64,000 nucleotides of DNA from Escherichia phage phAPEC8. Below, piece by piece: positions 27,143-64,000 of this stretch; within the stretch, counting starts at the first letter, position 1; every line of letters starts with the position of its first letter. The position numbers and the translations under genes are program-made. The notes under the pieces were generated by a model, which did no database searches, was not told the DNA's origin, and saw only the letters and a list, made by a program, of their open reading frames with translations. The stretch lies in sequence record NC_020079.1; one strand, written 5' to 3'.

Positions 27143-27217
27143 GGCCCTGTAGCTCAATGGGAGAGCTGTCGGCTCATAACCGATAGGTAGCTGGATCGAA
27201 ACCAGCCAGGGCCACCA
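27143..27217 (+). tRNA. tRNA-Met (anticodon CAT)
   Basis: Hand-folded cloverleaf: acceptor GGCCCTG/CAGGGCC, anticodon loop CTCATAA, encoded CCA; T-loop ATCGAAA. Confidence 0.7.
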
Positions 27218-27219
27218 AC

Positions 27220-27294
27220 GTCTTTATGGTGTAATGGATAGCACAGGAGTCTTCTAAACTCTTAGTCAAGGTTCGATTCCTTGTAAAGACACCA
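27220..27294 (+). tRNA. tRNA-Arg (anticodon TCT)
   Basis: Acceptor GTCTTTA/TAAAGAC, anticodon loop CTTCTAA, T-arm CAAGG-TTCGATT-CCTTG, CCA. Confidence 0.7.
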
Positions 27295-27490
27295 GAACAT
27301 TTTAACATGAATTAGCTCAAGTGATTTGAACCCACTACTGATCATGGTGGCAGAGAATGAGGCAAGTATGTCAGACATTATAAACAAAGGCCACGGTTAC
27401 ATTAGAAGACATAAATGCTCGAAGAGCACCGTTCGTGGAGAACGGGGGTTGGTGGAGTCACCATTCATGGTAAAATGTTTTAAAAAACTA

Positions 27491-27520
27491 TTGACAACTA
27501 ACATTATTTTATGTTAGATT
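27491..27520 (+). promoter_or_regulatory. sigma70-like promoter inside the tRNA operon
   Basis: CTATTGACA, 17-nt spacer, TTAGAT/TAGATT -10; a few nt upstream of tRNA-Ser. Confidence 0.45.
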
Positions 27521-47829: not shown

Positions 47830-48456
47830 ATGGGAATCCCTTTTGACTTAAAACTTGGACCAAACAACGACCTCATCATGGATGATGGGGATTTGGTCCT
47901 CACTACAACCAGAACAGAAATTGCAGCACAAACTCTTGGGATAACTCTGAACACGTATCGTGGGGAGTGGTTTTTAAATACTAACTTCGGTGTTCCTTAC
48001 TTACAAGAGATTATTGGTGTTGCTAGAAAGAAAGATATTGTAGACAGAATATTTTTAGCAGAGATTGCCAAAAACGTTTACATAGATACAATAAACAGTT
48101 ATAAATCTGCTTATGATATGGATCAACGTTATTACTCAATGACAGTTATGGTCACAGTTGGAGCAGATACAGTAACATCTATATTCAATACTCAACCTTC
48201 TGAAGAGTTTATTTACCCTGAAGCTGGTGAAGACAATGCAGCGATCATTTGTGAAGCTTACAGTATTGTTGAGAATTCGAATAGACTTTATCGCTTTATC
48301 AACTTTGTTGGTTTGCCACGTGATACCTACTCTACTTGGTGGAATGAATGGTCTACAGAGTCAGCAGTGGAAAGAATCATGGTTAACGAAAAAGGTGATG
48401 CATTAGCTACAAACAATAATTTCGGTATAACAGCTATGACAGGAGTAGAAGAGTAA
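47830..48456 (+). CDS. putative baseplate protein (208 aa)
   Basis: ORF track; gene order. Confidence 0.3.
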   Translation: MGIPFDLKLGPNNDLIMDDGDLVLTTTRTEIAAQTLGITLNTYRGEWFLNTNFGVPYLQEIIGVARKKDIVDRIFLAEIAKNVYIDTINSYKSAYDMDQRYYSMTVMVTVGADTVTSIFNTQPSEEFIYPEAGEDNAAIICEAYSIVENSNRLYRFINFVGLPRDTYSTWWNEWSTESAVERIMVNEKGDALATNNNFGITAMTGVEE

Positions 48457-48929
48457 TGGCAGATTTAACTACGATCAAAATTTCTGATCTTACACAAACA
48501 ACCTCTGTGTCTGATACAGATTTCTTTGTAACAGATCAGGCTGGAATAACAAAGAAAACTTCTTTGAAAGTGCTGTTGAGTGGTGCAGGGGTAACTAGAA
48601 ACCGTTTAAATGCACGTGGAACAGTAACTAGCACCTTGGCATTAGATATTAGTTCAGCAGAATATTTTTCGGCAACTTTATCTTCTGCAACATGCACAAT
48701 TAGTTTTACTAATATTCCAGTAGCAACAAATGCAGTTTTAAACTTTACTTTAGCTTTGCGTCAAGGAAGTGGTGCAAATAAAGTTGTATGGCCTTCTTCT
48801 GTAAAATGGAGTTTTGGTCGTTCCCCAGTTTTGAGTTATCGTCAAGGTGCAACAGACACTTTTGAGTTTATCAGTTATGATAATGGTGCAACTTGGACAG
48901 GTAGCTTAGTTTTAGCAGGAGTTATTTAA
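48456..48929 (+). CDS. hypothetical baseplate or tail protein (157 aa)
   Basis: ORF track; start overlaps the previous stop. Confidence 0.3.
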   Translation: MADLTTIKISDLTQTTSVSDTDFFVTDQAGITKKTSLKVLLSGAGVTRNRLNARGTVTSTLALDISSAEYFSATLSSATCTISFTNIPVATNAVLNFTLALRQGSGANKVVWPSSVKWSFGRSPVLSYRQGATDTFEFISYDNGATWTGSLVLAGVI

Positions 48930-51805
48930 TGTCAAGAGTTAAGCACAATATTGACAACACGTTTCAGTTGATTGAAGGGTTGGTTCAGTTTTTGGAAAGA
49001 AATACTGGGCTTACCATAGATCCTACGGTTCAGCATTACATTATCAACCCACAAAACGTATTGGCGAACAACAGACACTTTATTAACTGGACAGCGCAGG
49101 AAGGGCAACCAAACGGTGACGCTACTACCGAAGGTCAATCTGTGCTTATCACTGGTTTTGCCTATGCATATTTGGCTACAGGGGATAAAAAATATCTTGA
49201 ATCTGCCGAGAAGTATTGGCAAGCCTATATAGATCACTTCTTCGGGGGCCAACCTATTCCTGATCCTCCGGCTAAATATCGTCCCAACTGGATCATCAAT
49301 GGTAAAGAACCACGTTTAGCACATTACCCTCTCACAGATGATGGGTATCCTACGCACGGTGGGTTCAAAGGTAGCATGATGACTTGGATTAACGGAAGGA
49401 CTGTTATTCCTAAAGGTGCACCGCATTGGGGGGAATACTTAGATAAAGCTTGGTTTGCTTTCAATGGCAATCTTGGTTGGAACTCCGTTAACGCAACAGT
49501 TTATGCAACTAACCCAGATGGTTCAACCAACTGGAAAGAATATGGAGATCAGTGGGACGTTGAATGGATTATAGACCGTCTAGGACGTAAAGTTGATTGG
49601 GATGGTAACATTTTATCTACTGGTCATAGCTTTGCAGAATATGGAACAGTACAACTTAAAAATGCTTCTGTGAACGGGGACTATAAATTCAACTACGCTA
49701 CATGCAATCCTGTAGAACACGGTGGATATCTGCTTAAGCGTAATGAGATGTGGCATAACCGTCCTGTAAACGTTCCGGTAGAGTTAGGCTATCAAGATAA
49801 TGCTTCCGATGCTGAAACGTGGTGGTGTGATGCAAACTACTTGATGTATCAGATCACAGGAGAGAGAAAATACTGGCTTTGCTGGCAATCTTCTTTATTG
49901 TTGTGTCAAGACTACTCAAACATCGATATGTTTGATAAATTCTTCCGTAGATCTACGACAGCAATAATTCCTTTTACAGATGGTATCTCGTATGATTACT
50001 CATACCCATCTACAGCAATACCTAAATATTCTCGTGACGAATTAGGATACACAGTAATTCGCCAAGATGTTTCAGCACAAACAACTCTAGAACAACAGGC
50101 AGTTTGGTTCAGAGTAGATCAGAATTCAAAACTGCGTATTGAGTTTCAAGGTGTAGATGATGCAGGGGAAGGTGTTCTTTTCCGTCCAGAGCTAGAATTA
50201 AGCAAAACTAAGAGTGAAACAGACACAGTGACATATCGTTGTGGCTTACCTCTTGGTGCAGCTAATATGACTAAGATGGATATACCTTTATCTAGTTTTA
50301 TGCGCACCGAACCTCCTGGAGGTGGTGTATATATTATTGCTGAACCTAGAATTATTGTTGACTGGGGAAGCAATACTGTGATACAATATAAATATGCAAC
50401 TGGTATTGCTGGGACAAATAGTGATCAGATAGTTTCTGCTAATATGGATTCAGATGGTGGTTTTACTGTTGGGTTTTGGTTAACACCAACTAAAACAGCC
50501 AATTTAAAATCTATTACGTATCGTTCATACGCAGATGATTTTAACATCACTATTACGGATTCCGCAGGTTGGAGATGGTGGGCCATGTTAGAAAAAACAA
50601 ATTCTGCATGGGTTACTAAAGCTTTAAGTCCTGCTGATTTCAAATTAAGCACTTGGCAACCCAATCATAACGACACAGAGACAAAACCTTCGTCAATAAA
50701 CCTGACTGCTGTTGATCAGATCAACATTGCATTGGATTCTGAACCTGCAAATGGCTTGACAGGGGCAATCGATTTTTATTGTGTTAACGATATCCCATCT
50801 TTGTATTCTTCAGCCGCTGGTGATGATTACACAATGTATTTCAGGGTTACAGTTTCATCTGAAAATCCTTATACAGCAAAACTTGGAGATTGTACAATAC
50901 TGGACTATAAACTTGACAGTTTGAATTATACTCCAGGAATCATTCCATTTTCCAATATTAGTGATCCTAACACAGCATTATATGACGGTTGGCGTGGTAT
51001 TCCTTACCCAGGTTATCAATACCCATCCTTATATTGTTTTAAAGGGAGAGATATTGACTGGGTTCGTATGAACAACAGTATAGACTTTTTATATGATTCA
51101 CAAATGTGGTTTTATAATAAGTTTGCCCCTGTGATGCCTGGGCCAATGGCACAAGCTTATGTTTGGGATCGTTGGGATGCTCATAAATACGGAAACAAGA
51201 ATGAGTTCACAATGTATCATTGGAACGATAAAGCTTGGGATGGTTATGAAGCACGAGCATTCTTCTGTGCGTGTCATACAGTATACGAACTGAAGCAACG
51301 AGGAGCAGAAGTTCCTGAAAAACTTTTAACAGTTTGTAAAAACTGGATCAATTATCTGAAGTGGTTCCAGGATAACAACGAAGGAAGAACACCAACAATA
51401 TTTTATCCCAACGGAGAAGTGGCTGCGCCTGTAGATGACTTTACAAGTCACATGTCTGCGCTCTTTATGGCGGGATGTGCTATAATGGGGATGGCTGGAT
51501 ATGATTCAGAAATTCCTAACATTAAAATAGTAGCAGATCGCTGTTTTGAACTTATTCAGGAAAATTATATTGTTCTTGGTCCTAATCACGTTATGAATGG
51601 TTGTTGGAGTGCTGCTCCTAGACCAGACAGTGATAACGGAGTCTTCTTTGGCTTCCACGCCGGAGAGTTGTTACGTGGTTTTGGGTTGTATGCCTTATAC
51701 AAAAAACTTAATCCCCAAAATGCATTACCTGTTTTGGATTCGAGCAATATTCCTGCACTTACTGTTTTGACAATGGCAAACATTAGTGTGGACGTTACCG
51801 AGTAA
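48929..51805 (+). CDS. large Trp-rich tail-associated protein, possible glycan-degrading enzyme (958 aa)
   Basis: ORF track; many Trp/Tyr/Asp residues reminiscent of glycoside hydrolases; no motif firmly recognised. Confidence 0.3.
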   Translation: MSRVKHNIDNTFQLIEGLVQFLERNTGLTIDPTVQHYIINPQNVLANNRHFINWTAQEGQPNGDATTEGQSVLITGFAYAYLATGDKKYLESAEKYWQAYIDHFFGGQPIPDPPAKYRPNWIINGKEPRLAHYPLTDDGYPTHGGFKGSMMTWINGRTVIPKGAPHWGEYLDKAWFAFNGNLGWNSVNATVYATNPDGSTNWKEYGDQWDVEWIIDRLGRKVDWDGNILSTGHSFAEYGTVQLKNASVNGDYKFNYATCNPVEHGGYLLKRNEMWHNRPVNVPVELGYQDNASDAETWWCDANYLMYQITGERKYWLCWQSSLLLCQDYSNIDMFDKFFRRSTTAIIPFTDGISYDYSYPSTAIPKYSRDELGYTVIRQDVSAQTTLEQQAVWFRVDQNSKLRIEFQGVDDAGEGVLFRPELELSKTKSETDTVTYRCGLPLGAANMTKMDIPLSSFMRTEPPGGGVYIIAEPRIIVDWGSNTVIQYKYATGIAGTNSDQIVSANMDSDGGFTVGFWLTPTKTANLKSITYRSYADDFNITITDSAGWRWWAMLEKTNSAWVTKALSPADFKLSTWQPNHNDTETKPSSINLTAVDQINIALDSEPANGLTGAIDFYCVNDIPSLYSSAAGDDYTMYFRVTVSSENPYTAKLGDCTILDYKLDSLNYTPGIIPFSNISDPNTALYDGWRGIPYPGYQYPSLYCFKGRDIDWVRMNNSIDFLYDSQMWFYNKFAPVMPGPMAQAYVWDRWDAHKYGNKNEFTMYHWNDKAWDGYEARAFFCACHTVYELKQRGAEVPEKLLTVCKNWINYLKWFQDNNEGRTPTIFYPNGEVAAPVDDFTSHMSALFMAGCAIMGMAGYDSEIPNIKIVADRCFELIQENYIVLGPNHVMNGCWSAAPRPDSDNGVFFGFHAGELLRGFGLYALYKKLNPQNALPVLDSSNIPALTVLTMANISVDVTE

Positions 51806-51813
51806 GGGGTAAA

Positions 51814-53967
51814 ATGAAACAAGCTATATTTACTGTCACGCGAGACAAGAGAGTAAATGCGAGTTCATTTAACTACACGACTGTTGATGGAACAGCAGTC
51901 GCTGGTAGAGATTATATTGCAAAATCGGGAACACTTGTGTTCCCTGATGATGCTGATTCTGCTACCATTGTGGTTGAAGTATTTGAACGACCAAAGAACT
52001 CAATAGATCTTAACTTCTCCCTCCAAGTTTCAGGGATTAGTCAAAATAATATGATGGTTGAAACAACCATCAATTGTATTATAACTACTATCCAAGAAAA
52101 TACTACTCCAATAACTTGGACTACAAAAGACGTTAAAATGTTCTCTCCTATGTATTGGACAATAGATTCTCAAGCAACGGAAAGTTGTTCTATTGTATCT
52201 CATGGAGACTCTTTTACTGCAAGATTTGTAAACAGAACAACAGCAGGTTTGGCAGGGGTTATCTGGAGCACAGTTGACAAATATGACCATAAAGGTGTTG
52301 GGTATTTACCCCACACAGATTTAAGTTCAGAGAAACTTTGGTTTAAAATGGAAATTAGTCAAAACATGCCAGGTTTTAAAGAAGAACCTTTGGTGCCGAC
52401 TTTGACTGTAACTCTCCTGGATAAAAGTGTTCATTATGTCAGTTTAGGATTCTACGCTTCAGATATTTCAGAAGATGGTAAAACAGCTACAATCAAGTTA
52501 GATTTTGGTAATATCTTTTCTGGCCCTAATAATGATATTCCTTTGGATATGAGTGCTGTAGATAATATTTTCTTCTCTTTGATTACAGCAAGGTATGAAG
52601 AAATAGAAGAGGTTGTACCTATTGACAGTCAAGAGGCTTGGTTTACTTTCACTCTTCTTGAACCTACTTCTGGTTACAGTATGATGAAAGTCAGCAACCT
52701 TGTCCAGCCTGAACATGATATTCGCATGTGCACATCTTATGATGATATGTATAACCTGACTCCAGAGAGAGTTATTTATAATACATATGCACTAGGTTAT
52801 CGTGGGATGATTAACCATTATAACGGAATGTCTCACTATTATGAGTTCTCATGGAATGGAACATCTTGGGCTTTAAATAAATCTGTTTTCCTGAATCCGG
52901 CTACAGAAGCTTGGCTTAACAGCTTTCATTCTATAGCAAACGAGAAGGGCTACACAATAATGAACTCTTTAAGTTTTGAATTGATGAGCACAGTTTGTCC
53001 TGTAGAATGGGTCCAGCATGATTGGAACGATGCTCTTGCAGCAACAGGGTATAAACCTCCTAGTTATGTGTTGTCTCCAACTATTGACGAAGGTATGGAA
53101 TATTTGCAAAATGTTATTAATAAAATAGCATCTATTTCTCAAGCTAACAATATTCCAGTCGTCATTCAAATTGGTGAACCTTGGTGGTGGTATAATACAG
53201 CAAGTAAAATGCCTTGCATATATGATTACACTACCAAACTGGCATTCAACACAGAAACAGGTTTATTTGCACAAGATGCAGGAACAATAGATAATTATAA
53301 AACAGGAACGCCGTTTGACGAATACTATGCATTTTTGTCTCGTAAACTAGGATTAAGAGTTACAAAGTTTGCAACAGATCCCAGAGCAACTTACCCAGGA
53401 GCCAAGGTAACATTGCTTCCGTTCTTGCCATCAATTATCGGCAACGGTTTGATGGAGAAAGTTAACTTTCCGTCTGATTACTACATTCCTGAAACTTTTG
53501 ATTTTTACTGTTCAGAGTGTTACGACTGGCTTCTGGAAGGTAAAATGATGAAAGCATTCGATGCAATTACCATACCACATGAAAAATTAGGTTTTGAATA
53601 TTCTGATATTCACTATCTTTCGGGTTTTGTTCCAGATGCTACTCTTGCACCTTTGTATGGCTTCGATCCTGAATCAAACTACCGAACGTATCTTTGGAAA
53701 ATGATTATAGGCAATATAGTATTGAACGCCAACAAGTTTGACGGACTTACACAATATATATGGGCCTATCCTCAAATAATGCACGATTCCATCACGGTAG
53801 TTAATTCTCAATCTCAAGTTTTCTATATGGGTAACGTGCCTTTGAACGTTTATTTACAGGATATCACTCTTAAACAGGTAAATGTTGAGATTGCCACCAT
53901 AAGTGGAATTACATTAGCCACTAAATCTGGAGAAGATTTGGTAACAACACAAAAATTTTATATATAG
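51814..53967 (+). CDS. tail-associated protein with N-terminal Calx-beta-like domain (717 aa)
   Basis: TVDGTAVAGRDYIAKSGTLVFPDDADSATIVVEV matches the Calx-beta consensus pattern. Confidence 0.4.
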   Translation: MKQAIFTVTRDKRVNASSFNYTTVDGTAVAGRDYIAKSGTLVFPDDADSATIVVEVFERPKNSIDLNFSLQVSGISQNNMMVETTINCIITTIQENTTPITWTTKDVKMFSPMYWTIDSQATESCSIVSHGDSFTARFVNRTTAGLAGVIWSTVDKYDHKGVGYLPHTDLSSEKLWFKMEISQNMPGFKEEPLVPTLTVTLLDKSVHYVSLGFYASDISEDGKTATIKLDFGNIFSGPNNDIPLDMSAVDNIFFSLITARYEEIEEVVPIDSQEAWFTFTLLEPTSGYSMMKVSNLVQPEHDIRMCTSYDDMYNLTPERVIYNTYALGYRGMINHYNGMSHYYEFSWNGTSWALNKSVFLNPATEAWLNSFHSIANEKGYTIMNSLSFELMSTVCPVEWVQHDWNDALAATGYKPPSYVLSPTIDEGMEYLQNVINKIASISQANNIPVVIQIGEPWWWYNTASKMPCIYDYTTKLAFNTETGLFAQDAGTIDNYKTGTPFDEYYAFLSRKLGLRVTKFATDPRATYPGAKVTLLPFLPSIIGNGLMEKVNFPSDYYIPETFDFYCSECYDWLLEGKMMKAFDAITIPHEKLGFEYSDIHYLSGFVPDATLAPLYGFDPESNYRTYLWKMIIGNIVLNANKFDGLTQYIWAYPQIMHDSITVVNSQSQVFYMGNVPLNVYLQDITLKQVNVEIATISGITLATKSGEDLVTTQKFYI

Positions 53968-53975
53968 GAGTAAAA

Positions 53976-56741
53976 ATGTCAACTACAATTACTAATTTAC
54001 CCGAAACATCAAAAGTTAATGGTTCTGATTACCTGGTTTTAGATCAACCTGATAAGACTGTTAAAAGCACAGTTTCCAACTTTCTTACTGACACTGGGGT
54101 GGTTTTAGCCACCCAGCTAAAAGATACTTCTGGAGCTACCAAGTATCCAGAACTTCAAATGTCACGTTGGAGAGATGAAGGTGATCCTAGAGGATGGGGA
54201 GCAGTAGGTGACGGAGCAACAGACGATACTAATGCCATAACACAGCTTCTTGCTGCTATGCCTGATGGATGGATTGTTGATGGGCGTAATCTCACTTTCA
54301 AGGTTACAACACTACCAGATATAAGCAAGTTTAAAAACGCTGCTTTTGTTTACGAGCGTATTGTTGGACAACCCCTTACTTACGTATCTGAGGGTTTCTT
54401 TGATGGAAATCTGACAAAAATTACGGATACACCATTTTACAATGCTTGGACGCAAGATAAGACGTTTGTTTATGACAATGTTATATATGCACCATTTATG
54501 GCTGGCGAACGTCATGGTGTACAAAACCTCCATGTAGCGTGGGTTAAATCAGGAGATGATGGACAAACTTGGTCTATGCCAGAATGGTTAACTCCAATTC
54601 ATCCTGATTATAATGCCTCTTCAGCAAACAAAGTTAACTATCATTGTATGAGTATGGGTGTATGTGGTAATCGCTTATATGCGGTGATCGAAACCCGTTA
54701 CTTATCTAACATGCGATTGAAGAAAGCAGAACTTTGGTCACGTCCAATGCCTTATTATAGAAGGCCAACTGGAGGCATAACAATTAGTTCTGGGTCTACT
54801 ACAGCGACAATTGTTTTAGAAAAGCATGGTCTTAAAGTTGGAGATGCTGTTAACTTTTCCAATTCAGGTGCAACTGGCGTATCTGGAAATATGACTGTTG
54901 CATCTGTAATTAACAAGGATACATTTACTGTTACATTAGCGAGTGCTGCCACATCTAATATAGATAATACAGGAACTACTTGGCATTTTGGAACACGTTT
55001 CTGGGATAGCCCTTGGGAAATTACAGAATTACCAGATGTTGCCTATTCTACTAATGCAGATTTATGTGTTACAGAAACCCATAGTTTTACAGTTATAGAT
55101 GATGATAATTACACTTTTGCTGTTGGTTATCACAATGGTGATGTTTCCCCAAGAAGATTAGGTATTTTGTATTTCAATAATGCTTACTCTGACCCAAGTT
55201 CTTTTACTCGTAGAACAATTAGTCAAGAATATGCTGACAATGCAGCAGAACCCTGCATTAAATATTATGATGGAATTTTATATTTAACTACCAGGGGTAC
55301 TTCAACTTCTGCTGCTGGTTCTACATTAGCAATGAGTACCGACCTTGGAGAAAACTGGAACTACTTAAGATTCCCTAACAACGTTCATCATACAAACTTA
55401 CCATTTGCAAAAGTTGGTAACTACCTTTATATCTTTGGTACAGAACGTTCATTCGGAGAATGGGAAGGAGAAGAACTAGATAATAGATATAAAGGCACGT
55501 ATCCTCGAACGTTTATGTGCAAGATTAATGTATCTTCATGGCCTACATCTTTATCCGATGTTCAATGGTTTAATATCACTGATCAGATGTATCAAGGGCA
55601 TATTGTTAATTCTGCATGTGGTGTTGGTTCGGTATGTGTTAAAGATGGTTGGTTATATTATATCTTTGGAGGCGAAGATTTCTTATCTCCTTGGTCTATT
55701 GGGGATAATAGTAAAAAATTATGGTACAAGCATGATGGTCATCCAGCCGATTTATATAGTTATAGACTAAAGATTACCGAACATGATTTTGTATCACGTG
55801 ATTTCAAATATGGAGCTACGCCAAACCGTACATTGCCTGTATCTATGGGTACAGATGGGGTAAGGCATGTCTCAGCCCCTGTAACTTTTGATAATGATGT
55901 ACAAGTATACTCTTTAACAGTTACTGGCCTTGAGCATGATGGGACACAACAATCTGCCGTTAGAATAAAATTAGATGGTGATTATGGGGTTGTTGCAAAA
56001 AATGTCCCAATAAAAAATCCTTCTAAACAGCGACTAATCCTATGTGGAGGAGAAACTCCTTACGTTACTGATGGATCGCTATTACAACTATATGGTTCAA
56101 ACCATACGTATCCAAACAGAGCAGTTTTATATGCCCCAGGAGGAGCATATACCCAAAATAATTTCATGCCGTATTTAGATGGACAAGTTGCATTAGGCGG
56201 TGCGTCTAACAGATGGTCAGAAGTGTACGCATCTACAGGAACCATTAATACTTCAGATGGAACATTAAAAACTAAACCTACAGAGATTGAAGATATTTTA
56301 CTGAAAGCATGGGAAGATATTCATGTAATCTCTTACCAATGGCTTAGTGCTGTCGCGGAGAAAGGAGATTCTGCGCGTATTCATTTTGGTGTTATAGCTC
56401 AAGATGTAAGAGATATTCTGATTAATTATGGCTTAATGGATGAAAATAGCACTGATTGTAAGTATGCTTTTCTGTGTTATGATGAATACCCTGCTATGTA
56501 CGATAGTGTTGTTACGGGACAAAAAGAAATCCCTTTATTTGATGATGAAGGGAATGTTGTAATTGATGAAGAAGGTAATCCAGTAACAATCGTAGAAGAT
56601 GTTGTAGAAACTATCGAAATAATTCCAGCAGGATCGCGATGGGGTATCCGCGCTGACCAAATGTTTTTTATTGAGATGGCTTATCAACGTAAAAAGTTAA
56701 AAGCTCTTGAAGAAAGACTTGCAACCCTGGAAAGTAAATAA
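53976..56741 (+). CDS. sialidase-like (Asp-box) tailspike or fibre with C-terminal intramolecular chaperone domain
   Basis: Asp-box repeats SGDDGQTW and STDLGENW; last about 163 aa (from 56250: TSDGTLKTK...GVIAQDV...AYQRKKLKALEERLATLE) match the endosialidase / T5 pb1 chaperone domain. Confidence 0.6.
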   Translation: MSTTITNLPETSKVNGSDYLVLDQPDKTVKSTVSNFLTDTGVVLATQLKDTSGATKYPELQMSRWRDEGDPRGWGAVGDGATDDTNAITQLLAAMPDGWIVDGRNLTFKVTTLPDISKFKNAAFVYERIVGQPLTYVSEGFFDGNLTKITDTPFYNAWTQDKTFVYDNVIYAPFMAGERHGVQNLHVAWVKSGDDGQTWSMPEWLTPIHPDYNASSANKVNYHCMSMGVCGNRLYAVIETRYLSNMRLKKAELWSRPMPYYRRPTGGITISSGSTTATIVLEKHGLKVGDAVNFSNSGATGVSGNMTVASVINKDTFTVTLASAATSNIDNTGTTWHFGTRFWDSPWEITELPDVAYSTNADLCVTETHSFTVIDDDNYTFAVGYHNGDVSPRRLGILYFNNAYSDPSSFTRRTISQEYADNAAEPCIKYYDGILYLTTRGTSTSAAGSTLAMSTDLGENWNYLRFPNNVHHTNLPFAKVGNYLYIFGTERSFGEWEGEELDNRYKGTYPRTFMCKINVSSWPTSLSDVQWFNITDQMYQGHIVNSACGVGSVCVKDGWLYYIFGGEDFLSPWSIGDNSKKLWYKHDGHPADLYSYRLKITEHDFVSRDFKYGATPNRTLPVSMGTDGVRHVSAPVTFDNDVQVYSLTVTGLEHDGTQQSAVRIKLDGDYGVVAKNVPIKNPSKQRLILCGGETPYVTDGSLLQLYGSNHTYPNRAVLYAPGGAYTQNNFMPYLDGQVALGGASNRWSEVYASTGTINTSDGTLKTKPTEIEDILLKAWEDIHVISYQWLSAVAEKGDSARIHFGVIAQDVRDILINYGLMDENSTDCKYAFLCYDEYPAMYDSVVTGQKEIPLFDDEGNVVIDEEGNPVTIVEDVVETIEIIPAGSRWGIRADQMFFIEMAYQRKKLKALEERLATLESK

Positions 56742-56789
56742 TACAGCTTAGGTGGTATTTCAATCTTTATATCCCACTTAGAGGTACTC

Positions 56790-57053
56790 ATGGCTAAAGA
56801 GAAAAATGGTTTTAAAAAATTTATTCGCGGAATGTTCTGCACTTACCCCGGCAACGGGGTAAGCTCTACGAAAGTCTGGAACGCTGTAGGCATGTCTGTT
56901 ATGACAGGCATGTTTATCTTTTTAGGAATAGAAAAAGAAATTCCTGAATGGATGGGCTGGGCTTTTGTTTTCATGATAACCCCTTCTCGCCTCATGAAAA
57001 ATCTTATTGATTTACGTTGGGGCAGATCACAATCTACCAAAGAGGATGACTAA
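56790..57053 (+). CDS. small two-segment membrane protein (87 aa), holin-like topology
   Basis: Two hydrophobic stretches and a charged C-terminus. Confidence 0.3.
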   Translation: MAKEKNGFKKFIRGMFCTYPGNGVSSTKVWNAVGMSVMTGMFIFLGIEKEIPEWMGWAFVFMITPSRLMKNLIDLRWGRSQSTKEDD

Positions 57054-58540
57054 TGGACGAATATGGTTTGACAGATGCGGGATTTGTAATCCCGACTTTT
57101 GACGATGTTTTAAACAACTACATGACAGCAGTAAAAAACACATTTGGTGCAGATGCAGCCACTTCGGAAGACACTGTGATCGGGCAACTGTTTAGAATAA
57201 TTGCATACACAGATTACACATTGTGGGAAGGTATGCAAGGTGTTTATAATACTCAAACACTGGATGGTGCAGAAGGTATTTATCTTGACGAAATCTTTTC
57301 TAAACGCGGTTTCTATCGAGCAGGGGCAGCAGCAAGTACAGGTTATGCATATGTTAAGAGCAATAACAAAGCAGCTTGGACTTATGAGCTAGGCACGGAT
57401 ATTTACTTCAACTCTGATAGTGATATGAACTACTATGTTAGCACACCAACTATGTTGAATGCTAAGATTGCAGCTTATCAAATCTCTTGTGCTAATGCAA
57501 CTGCTACAGGTGTTCCAAATATTACTTTTTATGCACAAAGTGCGGTAGATGGAGGACTAAACAGTAAAACACTTGCACCTGGTTCTTCTACATTTATAAC
57601 CGATCTTGAAACTTTTATCAAGGCAAATTTAACAGAAGCTGATCGTAGTCTTGTATTTTCTGATTCAGGTAACTTATCAATTGGTTTTACTTCTTTAACT
57701 AGTGATACTCCAGTGGGACTGGTAACTCCTATTAAATTTTATGCTAGTGTTCCGGTTGGAACCAAGTGGAGTGAGATTCCGGTAGTTGCAGCAGAGAAAG
57801 GATACAACCCTGTTGGCGTGGAGTCTATTACAGGGATATCTTCTACCTTTACAGGTTATCTTGACAGTGGTAACTTTTATTCATTTTCTCCTGGTCGGGA
57901 TGTTGAGACAGACGCAGAATTCCGCTCTCGTTTCAATGACAACGTTGATGAAGCTAACGCAGGGACACGAGCAGCTATTGTGAAAGCTCTGCTACTTACA
58001 GATGGTGTTACTAAGGTGAAGATTTATGATAACCCTACATTACATGATCAAGAACATGCTCCGGCTATGACTTTCCAGACTATAGTTTATGGAGGAAGTG
58101 CTGAAGAAGTTGCTGAAGTTATTTACAAAACTAAACCAATCAACAGTTTGACACATGGAACAACCAACATAACTGTTACAACGGAAGACGGAGGACAAGA
58201 AATTATTCGTTTTTCTCCTGGTGCTTCTGCTACGTATTCCGTAAAACTTGTTTATCAAACTGTCAACGGAACAACTTTAAGTGGAACAGAAAAACAAAAC
58301 ATTGTAGAAGCTTTACAAAACCTGCAAGCTTACTTTGAATTAGGTTCTTCAGTAACGAACGATCAAATCAAAGGTGTTATTTATGCAGCACTTGCTTTTG
58401 GACGCTTGACTTCTCTTCGTGTTTATGTTAAACTTAATACTGAGGATGACAGTAAATATACAGAGAATAATATAGTTCCTGCTTATAATGTTGTCCCTTC
58501 TTTTGACCTTGATAACATTTCTTACGAGTATGGAGTGTAA
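57053..58540 (+). CDS. putative baseplate wedge protein (J-like)
   Basis: 495 aa; position in the baseplate and fibre module. Confidence 0.3.
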   Translation: MDEYGLTDAGFVIPTFDDVLNNYMTAVKNTFGADAATSEDTVIGQLFRIIAYTDYTLWEGMQGVYNTQTLDGAEGIYLDEIFSKRGFYRAGAAASTGYAYVKSNNKAAWTYELGTDIYFNSDSDMNYYVSTPTMLNAKIAAYQISCANATATGVPNITFYAQSAVDGGLNSKTLAPGSSTFITDLETFIKANLTEADRSLVFSDSGNLSIGFTSLTSDTPVGLVTPIKFYASVPVGTKWSEIPVVAAEKGYNPVGVESITGISSTFTGYLDSGNFYSFSPGRDVETDAEFRSRFNDNVDEANAGTRAAIVKALLLTDGVTKVKIYDNPTLHDQEHAPAMTFQTIVYGGSAEEVAEVIYKTKPINSLTHGTTNITVTTEDGGQEIIRFSPGASATYSVKLVYQTVNGTTLSGTEKQNIVEALQNLQAYFELGSSVTNDQIKGVIYAALAFGRLTSLRVYVKLNTEDDSKYTENNIVPAYNVVPSFDLDNISYEYGV

Positions 58541-58542
58541 AA

Positions 58543-59172
58543 ATGGCAGTGAGTGTTGACCATGTAACAACTTGGGCCAGTATCAATGAAGACGTTAAAA
58601 ACCTTCTGATTGAAGATTTTAAATCTTCTCCTAACATTGTCAAGCTCCTCTACATCGTATCCAGTGAAAAGCAAAAGATAGATCAGGCAATGATCTATCT
58701 TGCTAAACACCGCTTGATCTCCACAGCCACAGGCAAATACCTAGATATCTTAGGAGAAGAAATGGGGATCGAACGTAATGGCTCTGATGATGAAGAGTAT
58801 AGAACAATATTAAAAATCAGGGCTTACCGCGTAGCCTCATCGGGGACTCGTGGTGACATAATTGATATCTTCGCCCGTTTCACAGGAACAGAGCGTGAAA
58901 CGCTTAATACTTACGTAGGTTTGAATAAAACCTTTGATGTGTTTTTCTACAACCTGTGTCTTCAATCTGATCAAGCTTTAGAGCAGTTGCTAAGTGTTTT
59001 CCCTATTATTAGTAGCTACCGTCTTGGAGCAAAAGCAGGATCAGCTTTTGGTTTTAGTTCTTATTATGCTACCAAACCGCCTCATGGTATTGGTGGTTTA
59101 GGTTCCCTGTACATGGAATCTACTGGGGATGAAACAGGACGCATGTGTACGCTTCTCAAGCAAATAGATTAA
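58543..59172 (+). CDS. putative baseplate protein (209 aa)
   Basis: ORF track; gene order. Confidence 0.3.
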   Translation: MAVSVDHVTTWASINEDVKNLLIEDFKSSPNIVKLLYIVSSEKQKIDQAMIYLAKHRLISTATGKYLDILGEEMGIERNGSDDEEYRTILKIRAYRVASSGTRGDIIDIFARFTGTERETLNTYVGLNKTFDVFFYNLCLQSDQALEQLLSVFPIISSYRLGAKAGSAFGFSSYYATKPPHGIGGLGSLYMESTGDETGRMCTLLKQID

Positions 59173-59181
59173 GGAGTTTAA

Positions 59182-60243
59182 ATGGCGAAGCCAATATATT
59201 ATCCTGACTGGGCTACACAAACTGTAACGCTCCCAGGAACTTTAAACACAAACAAAATTAGACCTAAAGAAACCATCCGCACAATTGGTATGGATTATGG
59301 TCAAATCATGACTTGCGAAGAGATGAACTGGATTCTTAATAATATCGGTTTATGGATTCGCTATTTGGTGGATGATTTTCTTCCAACTTTACCTAATACC
59401 TACTTGCCTTTAGTGGGAACTAAGATTACAATGGCAGGTGATGCTACTGGTGAGGCCACTTGGAACGGTAACAAAGAAGTTACTTTATCTATCCAAGTTC
59501 AAGATAACAGTCATAATCACTTGTCAGCAAACATTACAGATGCTACTAGTTCAACAGTAACACCAAACGTGTTGGTAAAACGTGATGCGGGTGGTGCTAT
59601 TTATGGTGGCGATGTTTATGTTAACGGTACTTCCACAACAGATCCTGCAACACTGTTCTTCAAAAACTTTGCAGGACAAACAAATGGTGAGATTTCTGCC
59701 GAGTATCAAAGCGGAGGTCAGCTTTACATCTATCGTAGAAATCCTAGCACAGGTAGTGTATCGGCAGGTGTTCGTTTATATGATGCAGGTTATGTTCTAA
59801 TAGATAATCCAAGATCGAACAGTGGACAAGATACTTCTAACGGAAATGCTTTAGTTCGTTTAGATTATCTGAACTCTCGTTTGACTTCCCTTCAGAACAC
59901 ATTGCAGACGAATATTAACACTGTTCAAAACAACTTGAATAATGTTAACAACAACCTCTCTTCTCGTATAAACAATGTAGAAAGTAATCATCAAAGTCAG
60001 ATTACAAATAACTACAACTATGCTAACGGAACCTTTGTAAGAGATATTCGTTATACTAGCCAAGGTGTGTATTATCCACCAGGGAACGAGGTTTCTTGGA
60101 CTTATATCTGTTCTTCTGGTTATGTTCTTTCTGGTATTATCGTACAGGAAACAGGACGTAGCTCTGCGGATAACATCGGTGGGGTTTACTTCAAACGCCT
60201 CCAGCGCAACGTTAACGGAAACTGGTACGATATTGGAGGCTAA
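59182..60243 (+). CDS. putative tail fibre protein
   Basis: 353 aa; Asn/Gln-rich heptad-like segment NTLQTNINTVQNNLNNVNNNLSSRINNVESN. Confidence 0.4.
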   Translation: MAKPIYYPDWATQTVTLPGTLNTNKIRPKETIRTIGMDYGQIMTCEEMNWILNNIGLWIRYLVDDFLPTLPNTYLPLVGTKITMAGDATGEATWNGNKEVTLSIQVQDNSHNHLSANITDATSSTVTPNVLVKRDAGGAIYGGDVYVNGTSTTDPATLFFKNFAGQTNGEISAEYQSGGQLYIYRRNPSTGSVSAGVRLYDAGYVLIDNPRSNSGQDTSNGNALVRLDYLNSRLTSLQNTLQTNINTVQNNLNNVNNNLSSRINNVESNHQSQITNNYNYANGTFVRDIRYTSQGVYYPPGNEVSWTYICSSGYVLSGIIVQETGRSSADNIGGVYFKRLQRNVNGNWYDIGG

Positions 60244-60789
60244 ATGATATTTACAAACTTTAAAAAATATATTCCTGAAGACCCTGAACTAAAAGAATTG
60301 GTAGAAGCAGAGAACATTCTTTTTCTTCGTTGCGATCAAGGTTACGACTGGTATGATTTACGTAGCACAGAATTCAATAACGATAAAATGAAAGTCGTTT
60401 TTGATGATCAAAATCGTATTGTGTTTTGGAATACTGATCCTACACTACTTTGCCCTGAAGATCTTTCTATAGCACAAGTAGATTTTAATATAGATACTTT
60501 TGAGGATATTAGGAACAAGGTTCTGGATTTAGAAACCTTAACTCTTAAGGATAAAGAGTATTCCCGTGAAGAGTTGATGACACAAGCTAGTGCAAAAATT
60601 CGCTCTTTACAAGAAACAGCGGTAGCACTTATAACACCTTTACAGTATGCTAAAGATTTAGAAATGGCTACTGAAGACGAATTAGCTTATCTTAAAAATC
60701 TTCAAGTTTATGTAGTTAAACTAAATCGTGTTCCGCTTCAAAAAGACTATCCTTACGCTATAGATTGGCCTACATTACCGACAGAATAA
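60244..60789 (+). CDS. putative tail fibre assembly protein
   Basis: 181 aa gene directly after the fibre gene (ATGA overlap). Confidence 0.3.
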   Translation: MIFTNFKKYIPEDPELKELVEAENILFLRCDQGYDWYDLRSTEFNNDKMKVVFDDQNRIVFWNTDPTLLCPEDLSIAQVDFNIDTFEDIRNKVLDLETLTLKDKEYSREELMTQASAKIRSLQETAVALITPLQYAKDLEMATEDELAYLKNLQVYVVKLNRVPLQKDYPYAIDWPTLPTE

Positions 60790-60798
60790 GGGATCACT

Positions 60799-61134
60799 AT
60801 GGAATTTCAAGAAGCATGGGGACTTGCAAAGGATGCAATAATCCCTTTAATCGGAGTCATCTGGTTCTTTTTCAAACAAAAAATGGATAAATTCGGCTCT
60901 GATCTTGAGGAAATGGAGGAGAAAAGTCGAGAGCTAGAGAAGAAGTTGGTCTTTGTTGAATCAACTTACGCAACTAAAGCCGAACTTACCCAGATGCTAA
61001 ATCAAATTAACTCTACATTAATGGCAAATAACAACACCCTTGAGCAAAAAATTGAAAAGATTATGGACCTCAAGAATGCGACTATCCAAATGATGCTAGA
61101 TGACATAGTTAAACGTACACAGAATAAGGGGTAA
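60799..61134 (+). CDS. small membrane-anchored coiled-coil protein (111 aa)
   Basis: N-terminal hydrophobic segment IIPLIGVIWFFF followed by a charged helical region. Confidence 0.3.
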   Translation: MEFQEAWGLAKDAIIPLIGVIWFFFKQKMDKFGSDLEEMEEKSRELEKKLVFVESTYATKAELTQMLNQINSTLMANNNTLEQKIEKIMDLKNATIQMMLDDIVKRTQNKG

Positions 61135-61137
61135 TTA

Positions 61138-64000
61138 ATGGCAACATTCCCAACATATCCAGCAACGTCTCTCGAACAGGGCGTAGACCTGGTTATTTTC
61201 TCATCTAACCAACTCCATGATGTTATTAATGGAAGTGCTACAGAGAGTATTGAAACAGAATCAGGGTTGATACCAACCCTGAGAAAAGCCCTTGTTGACA
61301 ACTTTTTCTTTAAAAGTCCATTAGATTGGGCGCAAGGCACAAACGAAACAGTTTTTAACCAACTTCGTTATTTCCAGAACGGGGTGTTGAGTGGTTATTA
61401 CTATGCGCCTAACGCTACACTGGTAAACCCAATTCCTATGCAAGGGACTCCAGTAGGAGATAACAACTGGGTATTGTGGGGACTGAAGACAGAACAACTA
61501 GCAACAGAAGTCACCCCTTGGGTATATTCTGGTGCAACTGGTTATGAAACAGTAATCAGTCCTCCCTACATCTTTGATAGTGCTATTGTTACGATCAATG
61601 GTGTTATTCAGGTTCTGGGAGAAGCTTTCCGCATAGAAGATAGTAAAATCATCTTATCTGAACCTTTGGGACACGATCCTGCAACAGGACTGCCAAACAA
61701 ACTTTTTGCCTATATTGGTAAAATCGTAGCTTCCGCAGATACAGATCCTAACTTAGAAAACCGTCTTGTCAGTTTAGAAACAAAAACTGAAGAACTGACA
61801 GAAAGCATGGATAAAGTACCTTTACAAACTATTGCTCGTAAATACGGTTTGTTGGATGATGAAGTAGCTTACGCAACAGCGGGTCAATCGTTAACAGGGA
61901 TTAAAGCTCTGTATGATCCAGTAGCACAATCTTCCTACACATTGCCTCCTAACATCACAGGGACTTTAACATCCTTGTCTGTTTCTGGAGTAATGACTTA
62001 TTCTGGCGGATCTGTAGATCTTTCTGCATTGGCTGTTGAACGTGGACAGTTTGTTCATTTGCCTACAAGCTTTGGTAATAACGTAACTCTGACAGCTAAA
62101 AATCAGACGATTGGACGTGGTGCTGGTCGTTATCGTTGGGCTGGGAGTTTACCAAAAAGTATTTTGGCCTCAGATACATTGGAGACAAGCGGTGGATTAG
62201 GTCCAAATGCATGGGTTCTGACCAATACAGAAGGACTGTTAACCCCTCGTGGTGGAACATACAACGATTTATTCGATGTTGTCTACTTATCAGAATTTGC
62301 TAACAACACAACAACATATACCACACCAGAAGCAGCTTTCCAAGCGGCACTGTTAGCAGCAAAAGCTTCGAAAAGCAAGATTCTCGATGCTTACGGTTGC
62401 GATATGACTTTCACGACAAGCTCTTTTGATATTCAAGGTATCACTTTGCGTGGGGGTGTGTTCCGTGGTCAACGCGACTATCGTGTGCAAAATGCTACAG
62501 TAGAAGGCACAACTTTCCGTAACTCTCGTGTTATGTATTGGGGTGGTGCTGTGCGCATGTTCGATTGTTTGTGGGACGGTGCTCCTCGCGCAGGTCAAGT
62601 TGGTAGCTTGGTATTCCAAGGCAACCCAATATCAGGTACTTTTGAAATTGATAACTGTACTTTTAAAAACGGGTTGTATGGCATCCTTCAACAAGGAACA
62701 GGGGAACCAGTAACACGTGGTGTCTTCCGTAACCTTACCTTCATGGACATGCAAGGTGATGCAATAGAACTGAACGTCATCAATAAACATTATGACGATG
62801 GTTGTGTGATTGAGAATATTTACCTGTCTAATATCGATGGGACTAACGCTCCTATTCCTCTGTCCAACTGGGGTATCGGTATCGGTGTAGCTGGTAAAGG
62901 ACCATATGGTTACGGAATCCCTGATGATCAATATTGCAAGAATATTACAATTCGTAACGTTTTTGCAAAACGTTGTCGTCAGATTGTCCACGTAGAAGTT
63001 GGTCGTAATATCTCTATCGAAAACATTCATGGCGATCCAGACCAGACCGTATCTGTTGGGACAGGTTTGGCAACTGGCGCAGTTGTAATGTATGGAAGTA
63101 AAGATTTTACGATTGACGGTGTTTACGGAGAGCCTAAAACAGACGGTAGCACACTTGCAAGTAATATCCGTATGATTTATTTGGAGTGGGGAACTAACGC
63201 AGTTCTGGACGAAGAGGGTAATCCGGTAGTTCCGGCACAGGGTAGACCTTCAAACCCATGCTTTAACTATTCTGTTCGTAATATTCACACCAAAACTGGG
63301 CGTGTTTTTGCAGGAGTTTCCGCTGGGCCAGGTTATGAAAACAGAGTTAGCTTTGAAAATATTCGTTGCGCTGCATTGCAGTTATTCGGTATAGCTTCTT
63401 GGCTTTCAATGTCTAACATCACCTGTAATATCTTCGATTGTGTTGGTCAACCTGAATCTGGTCCAGGGACATTTTATGATGGATTCTTCCGTAGAGAAAA
63501 ATCTGTTCTTGAAATGGTTAACGTGAACTGTTACCCAGATGGCAAGACGATGGTTACTGGTCGTCCACAGTGGAGCCGTTGCCGTTACTCGGATATTCAT
63601 CGTGTCAATTGTAATGTTGAAGCTAATATGTATACCAATATCGCAGGTGGTATTGGAGCTATTGTAGGGACAACGGGCAAAGTTTATTACTTAGAGCCTA
63701 ATCCTAGTCGAAACATTGATGGAATGCATTTCCCAACAGGGAAAGAGTTTGACAAAGGTGATATGATAGTCAAGGCGGATAATACGTTCTTCCTTGTAAC
63801 AACAAGTGGGGCATATATTCCAGATATCCCAGCTTTCGGTATTCGAGCTACACAGGCAGGAGATACCTTCCTGACACAGAACTTGACTCCTAACGGGACA
63901 GCAACAAATGCTTCTTGGTTGTATCATTACCCTCTGTCAGCAGGGACACGTATCCGTATTCCTGGCGCTGGTGTAGGTGGAGCAGATTTGGACACAGTTA
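61138..64000 (+). CDS. tailspike with parallel beta-helix (pectate-lyase-like depolymerase fold), 3' end beyond the window
   Basis: Hand-translated from the ATG at 61138 with no stop to 64000; repeated beta-helix-type segments (NITIRNVF, NISIENIHG, VRNIHT); absent from the ORF track because it lacks a stop. Confidence 0.5.
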   Translation, partial: MATFPTYPATSLEQGVDLVIFSSNQLHDVINGSATESIETESGLIPTLRKALVDNFFFKSPLDWAQGTNETVFNQLRYFQNGVLSGYYYAPNATLVNPIPMQGTPVGDNNWVLWGLKTEQLATEVTPWVYSGATGYETVISPPYIFDSAIVTINGVIQVLGEAFRIEDSKIILSEPLGHDPATGLPNKLFAYIGKIVASADTDPNLENRLVSLETKTEELTESMDKVPLQTIARKYGLLDDEVAYATAGQSLTGIKALYDPVAQSSYTLPPNITGTLTSLSVSGVMTYSGGSVDLSALAVERGQFVHLPTSFGNNVTLTAKNQTIGRGAGRYRWAGSLPKSILASDTLETSGGLGPNAWVLTNTEGLLTPRGGTYNDLFDVVYLSEFANNTTTYTTPEAAFQAALLAAKASKSKILDAYGCDMTFTTSSFDIQGITLRGGVFRGQRDYRVQNATVEGTTFRNSRVMYWGGAVRMFDCLWDGAPRAGQVGSLVFQGNPISGTFEIDNCTFKNGLYGILQQGTGEPVTRGVFRNLTFMDMQGDAIELNVINKHYDDGCVIENIYLSNIDGTNAPIPLSNWGIGIGVAGKGPYGYGIPDDQYCKNITIRNVFAKRCRQIVHVEVGRNISIENIHGDPDQTVSVGTGLATGAVVMYGSKDFTIDGVYGEPKTDGSTLASNIRMIYLEWGTNAVLDEEGNPVVPAQGRPSNPCFNYSVRNIHTKTGRVFAGVSAGPGYENRVSFENIRCAALQLFGIASWLSMSNITCNIFDCVGQPESGPGTFYDGFFRREKSVLEMVNVNCYPDGKTMVTGRPQWSRCRYSDIHRVNCNVEANMYTNIAGGIGAIVGTTGKVYYLEPNPSRNIDGMHFPTGKEFDKGDMIVKADNTFFLVTTSGAYIPDIPAFGIRATQAGDTFLTQNLTPNGTATNASWLYHYPLSAGTRIRIPGAGVGGADLDTV

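Follow-up and report, generated by a model that had tools for sequence, protein, structure and literature searches.

A probable phi92-type multivalent adsorption apparatus in the distal tail region of Escherichia phage phAPEC8

Organization of the distal tail region

The 64,000-nucleotide (nt) stretch of Escherichia phage phAPEC8 that was analyzed (NC_020079.1; referred to below as the window) ends in a region of 15 kb in which an original prediction, made from the letters of the sequence, had placed four large tail proteins. All four were recovered as plus-strand open reading frames (ORFs) of 958, 717, 921 and more than 954 amino acids (aa), described in that prediction as a Trp-rich protein, a Calx-beta protein, an Asp-box sialidase-like spike and a beta-helix spike. 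The region very probably encodes a multivalent adsorption apparatus of the type found in phage phi92, in which one baseplate carries several different glycan-directed proteins.

The region comes from a Phapecoctavirus, a genus of phAPEC8-like E. coli myophages in the subfamily Stephanstirmvirinae. In megablast searches, the whole 15 kb region showed 97-98% DNA identity to Phapecoctavirus genomes, with ASO2A, ECO340P2, PNJ1809-36, ESCO5 and REC as the best matches, and 50 phage records covered at least 80% of it. The deposited genomes of phAPEC8, ESCO5, ASO2A, REC and nepoznato, which lie in the same 97-98% range, exhibit no material difference. An interpretation of the large ORFs as chance ORFs or pseudogenes was ruled out by protein identities of 97-100% to many deposited phages.

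The genes for the sheath, tube, tape measure, a Dit-like protein, the hub and the central spike are located upstream, and the region consequently constitutes the distal part of the late tail operon of a myovirus. Within it, ORFs of 958, 717, 921, 87, 495, 209, 353, 181 and 111 aa follow one another on the plus strand and precede the open beta-helix ORF; the intergenic gaps range from -1 to 48 nt, and a Shine-Dalgarno sequence is found before every start codon of the series. A scan of 46-64 kb returned promoter-like and terminator-like matches at the level of shuffled sequence (53 vs. 52.6 and 16 vs. 12.1, respectively), providing no evidence of internal regulation.

Comparison of all 11 window proteins with the phi92 locus and that of the Justusliebigvirus phage Paula by tblastn revealed a gene order that corresponds one-to-one to phi92 gp140-gp150. 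Identities were 75-97%, except for the diverged fibre chaperone. The features are listed below, with percentages giving the identity to the respective phi92 protein.

48456..48929, plus strand: tail-fibre-like protein, 157 aa, phi92 gp140 homologue (83%); PHROG 9017 "tail fiber protein," E = 2.7e-68
48929..51805, plus strand: Trp-rich gp141-type protein, 958 aa, phi92 gp141 (83%)
51814..53967, plus strand: gp142-type protein, 717 aa, phi92 gp142 (77%)
aa 4-82, nt 51823-52059: Calx-beta domain of the gp142-type protein (PF03160, E = 7.7e-11, 42.5 bits vs. a cut-off of 27)
aa 107-292, nt 52132-52689: NCTSP_N domain of the gp142-type protein
aa 299-658, nt 52708-53787: TIM barrel (TIM-barrel_NCTSP) of the gp142-type protein
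53976..56741, plus strand: endosialidase tailspike precursor, 921 aa, phi92 gp143 (EndoN92) homologue (96.9%)
aa 1-54, nt 53976-54137: conserved N-terminal anchor of the endosialidase
aa 76-759, nt 54201-56252: catalytic beta-propeller, beta-barrel and stalk of the endosialidase
aa 760-921, nt 56253-56738: Peptidase_S74 self-cleaving chaperone of the endosialidase
54137..56815, plus strand: exchangeable cassette, slot 3, delimited by blastn break-points
56790..57053, plus strand: small conserved protein, 87 aa, phi92 gp144 homologue (83%)
57053..59172, plus strand: baseplate wedge proteins of 495 aa and 209 aa, homologues of phi92 gp145 (T4 gp6-like; 80%) and gp146 (87%)
59182-60243, plus strand: short tail fibre, 353 aa, phi92 gp147 homologue (75% over aa 1-267); PHROG 4465, 3.8e-108
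60244-60789, plus strand: fibre assembly chaperone, 181 aa, phi92 gp148 counterpart (no significant tblastn match vs. phi92; 25% vs. the phage Paula gp148 orthologue); Caudo_TAP PF02413, E = 3.2e-13; PHROG 136, 6.6e-42
60799..61134, plus strand: small protein, 111 aa, phi92 gp149 homologue (76%); PHROG 15210, 4.3e-70
61138..64000, plus strand: beta-helix tailspike, counterpart of the phi92 gp150 colanidase tailspike (75% over aa 1-215, 32% over aa 455-953), cut by the window end
aa 1-215, nt 61138-61782: anchor of the beta-helix tailspike
aa 226-372, nt 61813-62253: Ackermannviridae/G7C-type tailspike protein (TSP) N-terminal domains of the beta-helix tailspike
aa about 426-954, nt 62413-63999: catalytic beta-helix

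The conserved genes of this shared order thus show 75-87% aa identity to phi92 and the endosialidase about 97%. In contrast to phi92, the window belongs to the genus Phapecoctavirus, the catalytic part of its gp150-type spike is down to 32% identity, and its fibre chaperone has diverged much further. The genes after the gp150-type spike differ as well: in Phapecoctavirus relatives, two further fibre genes are located directly past the position matching the window end, the first coding for 674 aa with a TSP N-terminal domain and collagen repeats and the second for 890 aa with RCC1-like and Big_2 domains.

The endosialidase and its exchangeable slot

Judged by its sequence, the 921-aa protein is a bona fide endosialidase. 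Two Asp-boxes (S-x-D-x-G-x-x-W) were identified at aa 192 and aa 454, and all five endosialidase Pfam domains are present, including the glycoside hydrolase family 58 (GH58) set of PF12218, PF12217 (End_beta_propel, E = 3.6e-213), PF12195 and PF12219, which score far above their cut-offs, and Peptidase_S74; the sialidase-like assignment of the original prediction was thereby upheld. The crystal structure of phi92 EndoN92 (4HIZ) was matched with 1573 bits at about 97% identity, the substitutions being merely scattered, and K1F endoNF was matched at E of about 1e-237. In a HMMER alignment, E425, R440 and R491 coincide with the catalytic Glu/Arg/Arg positions of 3GVL, E581, R596 and R647 in K1F numbering. 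The Peptidase_S74 match covers aa 760-819 (E = 1.5e-12), with INT-SDG at the start of the domain and a further match to 3GW6 (E = 1.6e-70).

The phi92 record describes an EndoN92 precursor that undergoes proteolytic maturation and is active on alpha-2,8 and alternating alpha-2,8/2,9 polysialic acid. Because of its identity of about 97% to EndoN92, the window protein is predicted to depolymerize alpha-2,8 polysialic acid. It resembles the K1-specific endosialidases (GH58; K1F endoNF, 1V0E/3GVL, and EndoN92, 4HIZ) in its five-domain architecture, its Glu/Arg/Arg residues and its S74 intramolecular chaperone. Unlike the K1F enzyme, it is placed on a myovirus baseplate via the 54-aa anchor and not via a T7-like adaptor. 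This anchor is common to other slot-3 spikes of the Stephanstirmvirinae. The N-terminus of the 157-aa gp140-like protein (MADLTTIKISDLTQTTSVSDTDFFVTDQAGITKKTSLKVLL; nt 48456-48929) was also found to resemble it (MSTTITNLPETSKVNGSDYLVLDQPDKTVKSTVSNFL; nt 53976-54137), and both proteins may have a docking motif in common.

Slot 3 is the only part of the region that varies within the genus, everything else being 96-100% identical. The majority of other genus members carry a different spike in this position, for example Ro121c4YLVW, whose unrelated tailspike of 762 aa has only aa 1-54 in common with the endosialidase, and in phage Paula the slot is empty. The full-length endosialidase gene occurs in only 12 records, while its first ~225 nt are found in many more; phAPEC8, ESCO5, ASO2A, REC and nepoznato harbor the same allele. 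In a sliding-window comparison with phi92, DNA identity reached 95-98% at ~53.8-56.8 kb (53800-56815) vs. 67-83% in both flanks. This difference between cassette and flanks points to a recent horizontal transfer of the endosialidase cassette between Justusliebigvirus and Phapecoctavirus, whose likely recombination borders are the 54-aa anchor, which is conserved, and the beginning of the gp144-like gene.

The beta-helix spike and the gp141/gp142-type pair

The beta-helix ORF continues for 954 codons without a stop up to the window end, the full length in relatives being 1017 aa, and its product is a mosaic of parts with different relatives. The first 114 aa are common to rV5-type lateral fibres and aa 128-372 to the spikes of Kuttervirus, CBA120 and G7C, while aa 372-953 are common to the "tailspike colanidase" of the podophages smaasur and Sortsne (43-47% identity) and to phi92 gp150. 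Structure matches follow the same division: CBA120 TSP3/TSP4 and the tail fibre and tailspike structures 4QNL/4OJ5 match aa 226-399 (~1e-26 to 1e-30), and the crystal structure of the phi92 gp150 tailspike (PDB 6E0V) matches aa 426-953 (E = 1.7e-69, 32% identity), establishing homology to gp150. The predicted beta-helix spike was therefore confirmed in substance by 6E0V, whereas the Pfam Beta_helix match stayed below threshold (16.1 bits vs. a cut-off of 25.9). A further match was obtained to PHROG 6117, "colanic acid degradation" (4.8e-265).

By homology, the spike would clear colanic acid. Across 59 Phapecoctavirus records, whose hosts cover many serotypes, its conservation is 99% or higher, in keeping with a conserved target, for example colanic acid. 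Members of the genus were also obtained in a second selection against phage-resistant variants of sequence type 410 (ST410), one of them a colanic-acid-overproducing mutant (PMC12753057). The names P-3BB... suggest the colanic-acid overproducer as host, and one Phapecoctavirus was reported to have a colanic acid-degrading protein (PMC12753057). Alternatively, the spike could target another capsule or an O-antigen, the label "colanic acid degradation" having been carried over from phi92. The fall from 75% identity to phi92 gp150 in the anchor to 32% in the catalytic part is what module swapping accompanied by a new specificity typically produces, and the sub-threshold Pfam match leans in the same direction; yet the match to 6E0V spans the entire catalytic part, the near-invariance across host serotypes fits a conserved target, and the selection on phage-resistant hosts included a colanic-acid overproducer. 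A different substrate is thus possible but the less probable option.

In the 717-aa protein, the Calx-beta domain named in the original prediction was verified by PF03160 above the Pfam cut-off. Behind this domain, Pfam identified NCTSP_N and TIM-barrel_NCTSP, the domain combination of N4 gp64/gp65, and a search of PDB sequences returned N4 Gp64 (E = 4.7e-30) as well as the N4 "non-contractile tail sheath" gp65. An AlphaFold model (predicted local distance difference test, pLDDT, 90.6) exhibits a TIM barrel of the glycoside hydrolase type, and across 32 homologues E455 (within QIGEPWWW) never varies and E568 hardly ever does. The protein also carries the motif GMSHY at aa 338-342, a signature of NGR-binding phages for which phi92 gp142 was named as an example (bioRxiv 10.64898/2026.04.02.716166). 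Vequintavirinae, phi92-like phages and N4 were reported to depend on wecB/nfrB (NGR) and to share the domain found here (PMC8594841; PMC8669472); in the literature consulted, no such dependence is described for Phapecoctavirus. By analogy, the 717-aa protein is a candidate for binding or hydrolyzing the NGR glycan. In contrast to the N4 gp64/gp65 heterodimer (PDB 9LC0, 9YF4), it consists of a single chain with an N-terminal Calx-beta domain, belongs to a contractile-tailed phage and lacks the long C-terminal domains of gp65. A literature search found no paper testing the enzymology of the N4 gp64/gp65 TIM barrel. The NCTSP_N and TIM-barrel module is also very common in Acinetobacter chromosomes, where it occurs without Calx-beta as a protein of 623 aa misnamed "phage capsid protein," and a fusion of the module to DUF2460, a distal tail protein domain of the gene transfer agent type, occurs in alphaproteobacterial contigs.

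The 958-aa protein contains 34 Trp residues (3.55%), and its description as Trp-rich was accurate. Its model (pLDDT 87.3, predicted template modeling score 0.83) shows a split (alpha/alpha)6 glycosidase-like barrel, built from the N- and C-terminal helices, into which beta-sandwich domains resembling carbohydrate-binding modules (CBMs) are inserted; Foldseek identified one of the domains as CBM11-like. The modelled fold is thus of a glycosidase-like type. E68, Q70, D294 and E296 are invariant, including in the homologues of rV5, a Vibrio Ackermannviridae phage, the jumbo phage Goslar and podophage 7-11. The full-length protein gave no Pfam match and, up to E = 1, no match to PDB sequences. Membership in GH8 found no support at the sequence level: a 435-aa core, from which the inserts had been deleted, produced sub-threshold matches to other (alpha/alpha)6 families only and no PDB sequence match. 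The likeness of "TTEGQS" and "ASDAE" to GH8 motifs is a lead and not a result.

Homologues of the 958-aa protein were found in 532 phage records, spanning Vequintavirus, Justusliebigvirus, jumbo phages (Goslar and genomes of Asteriusvirus size), Rosemountvirus, Kolesnikvirus, podophage 7-11 and Vibrio Ackermannviridae, and also in many chromosomal contigs of Enterobacter, E. coli and Pseudomonas; for no homologue in either group was a solved structure or a known substrate found. Within the genus, the 958-aa and 717-aa proteins each show conservation of at least 99%, and both are present in numerous unrelated phages. They are not classical variable trimeric spikes, and this combination of conservation and spread suggests that they probably address conserved glycans such as NGR and not serotype-specific ones. 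In addition, a metagenomic contig of an SU10-like podophage encodes a natural fusion of 1557 aa (P0105; L006:6691-11364), which shows 44% identity to the 958-aa protein over aa 13-960 and 52% identity to the 717-aa protein in its NCTSP_N and TIM-barrel region but is devoid of Calx-beta. In the manner of a "Rosetta-stone," this fusion suggests that the two proteins act as one unit.

Tentatively, the pair may be regarded as one mobile two-enzyme glycan-processing appendage, composed of an (alpha/alpha)6 barrel and a TIM barrel resembling the C-terminal domain of PgaB, that has spread through more than 500 genomes of myo-, podo- and jumbo phages; the often-repeated "glycan deacetylase" label of the gp142/N4 gp64 domain might derive from the name of the PgaB modeling template. 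If this proposal is true, the gp142-type domain would be a glycoside hydrolase, or a hydrolase-derived lectin, for the NGR polymer, and its 958-aa partner would represent a second, uncharacterized glycosidase family.

A comparably doubtful alternative holds that both proteins are conserved baseplate or lectin-type parts which bind sugar or are purely structural, so that the depolymerases would be two spikes and not four. Their conservation of at least 99% in the genus and of 35-55% across phages of very different hosts is unlike that of typical variable receptor-binding proteins, in N4 the tail is surrounded by a structural "non-contractile sheath" built from the homologues gp64/gp65 (PMC12633501), and the 958-aa protein shows no GH family match at the sequence level. 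On the other hand, both proteins keep acidic residues where active sites typically have them (invariant E68, D294 and E296 in the 958-aa protein; invariant E455 and nearly invariant E568 in the 717-aa protein), and the closest folds of both models are enzymes and not lectins. Moreover, a binding-only role would still make both proteins receptor-binding, as the original prediction had allowed. None of the four large proteins has the appearance of a plain structural baseplate component: for each, either a homologue is demonstrated to degrade glycans or the model confidently shows a fold of the glycosidase type. Experiments have established enzymatic activity for two of the four, and in both cases only for the phi92 homologue.

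Accessory genes and a model of multivalent adsorption

The remaining genes of the region comprise baseplate components, a short fibre with its chaperone and small proteins. The 495-aa and 209-aa wedge proteins were assigned by Pfam matches of the pair to Baseplate_J (4.3e-09, in the 495-aa protein) and DUF2612 (1.5e-06) and by PHROG 6 and PHROG 4056, in agreement with the annotation of phage Paula, and likely form the attachment platform for the fibres. A separate fibre gene with an assembly-protein gene had also been predicted and was identified as the 353-aa short fibre and the 181-aa Caudo_TAP protein. The chaperone gene begins directly after the stop codon of the fibre gene, an arrangement of the lambda gpK/Mu GpU type. 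Mu GpS/GpU were described as relatives of the short fibre found in phi92-like phages and Phapecoctavirus, and of the fibre/chaperone locus of the phi92-like phages (PMC8594841). The window fibre presumably binds the terminal receptor in the lipopolysaccharide (LPS) core. For the 157-aa protein, the phi92 record labels its counterpart gp140 "similar to tail fiber protein." The 87-aa protein gave no Pfam match, and the 111-aa protein consists of a hydrophobic N-terminus followed by a coiled-coil-like remainder. Far upstream, 11 tRNA genes are clustered on the plus strand at 27143-29148, just past a sign change of the GC skew at ~26 kb; such a cluster is typical for the group of phAPEC8-like phages.

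In the proposed model, the gp145- and gp146-like wedge proteins would carry several different appendages. The endosialidase in the exchangeable slot, matured by self-cleavage of its C-terminal chaperone, would strip the polysialic acid capsule of K1 and probably also of K92 hosts, and the beta-helix spike would clear colanic acid or a related exopolysaccharide. The gp141- and gp142-like pair would bind or cut a conserved surface glycan; specifically, the gp142-like protein, probably together with its gp141-like partner, could engage the WecB/NfrB-dependent NGR glycan, thereby bypassing the O-antigen. Finally, the short fibre would bind the LPS core and trigger contraction. Several capsule or O-antigen types had been expected as targets. 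This expectation was partly sustained, as the polysialic acid capsule, colanic acid and NGR are implicated, but no O-antigen specificity was shown.

For phage phi92 (Justusliebigvirus), a multivalent adsorption apparatus, a "nanosized Swiss army knife," was reported by Schwarzer et al. in 2012 (J Virol 86:10384). A later report describes three co-expressed lateral fibres on one phi92 particle, visualized by cryo-electron microscopy, and orthologous loci in all relatives (PMC8594841). Phapecoctavirus has been equated with the phi92 type, and the broad host range of phi92 and its relatives has been explained by several co-displayed fibres and spikes (PMC8594841; PMC10844046). A similar strategy is found in the Ackermannviridae (CBA120, Kuttervirus), whose branched tailspike complexes also provide one myovirus with several distinct enzymatic spikes and share TSP N-terminal domains (PF18668) with the beta-helix spike of the window. 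However, their baseplate genes are unrelated, and the window set adds enzymes with a beta-propeller, a TIM barrel and an (alpha/alpha)6 barrel.

Simultaneous display on the virion would distinguish such an apparatus from a set of alternative equipment, in which each virion carries only a subset, for example because of competition for one docking site on the baseplate, and no single particle is multivalent. The similar N-termini of the slot-3 spike and the 157-aa protein could give rise to such competition. However, the phi92 particle is reported to bear three different co-expressed fibre sets at once (PMC8594841). Furthermore, the genes form one tightly packed operon in which promoter- and terminator-like matches are no more common than in shuffled sequence, and the four large proteins (958 aa, 717 aa, 921 aa and beta-helix) differ from one another in their N-terminal anchors. 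Alternative equipment is consequently considered very improbable.

Several observations weigh against a multivalent apparatus with four glycan-directed enzymes. That the proteins are virion-associated and active is carried over from phi92, rV5 and N4. With only ~32% identity to the characterized phi92 colanidase in its catalytic part, the beta-helix spike could have a different substrate, and neither Pfam nor PDB sequences provided a glycoside hydrolase family match for the 958-aa protein, with or without its inserts. The near-invariance of the 958-aa and 717-aa proteins in the genus provides no account of host-range differences between close relatives. In addition, the NGR predictions in the preprint are limited to Vequintavirus, Justusliebigvirus and Enquatrovirus and do not extend to Phapecoctavirus (bioRxiv 10.64898/2026.04.02.716166).

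Taken as a whole, the multi-spike reading is correct but already known, as the concept was published in 2012 and near-identical genomes have been deposited by the dozen. The remaining biochemical interest lies in what the gp141-like and gp142-like proteins do and which substrates they use. Knowledge of the endosialidase cassette in slot 3 (nt 54137-56815) helps to choose or engineer therapeutic phages against K1 E. coli. The host ranges of the phAPEC8/phi92 group are among the broadest of coliphages, and multi-enzyme tails of the kind encoded here are the accepted explanation.

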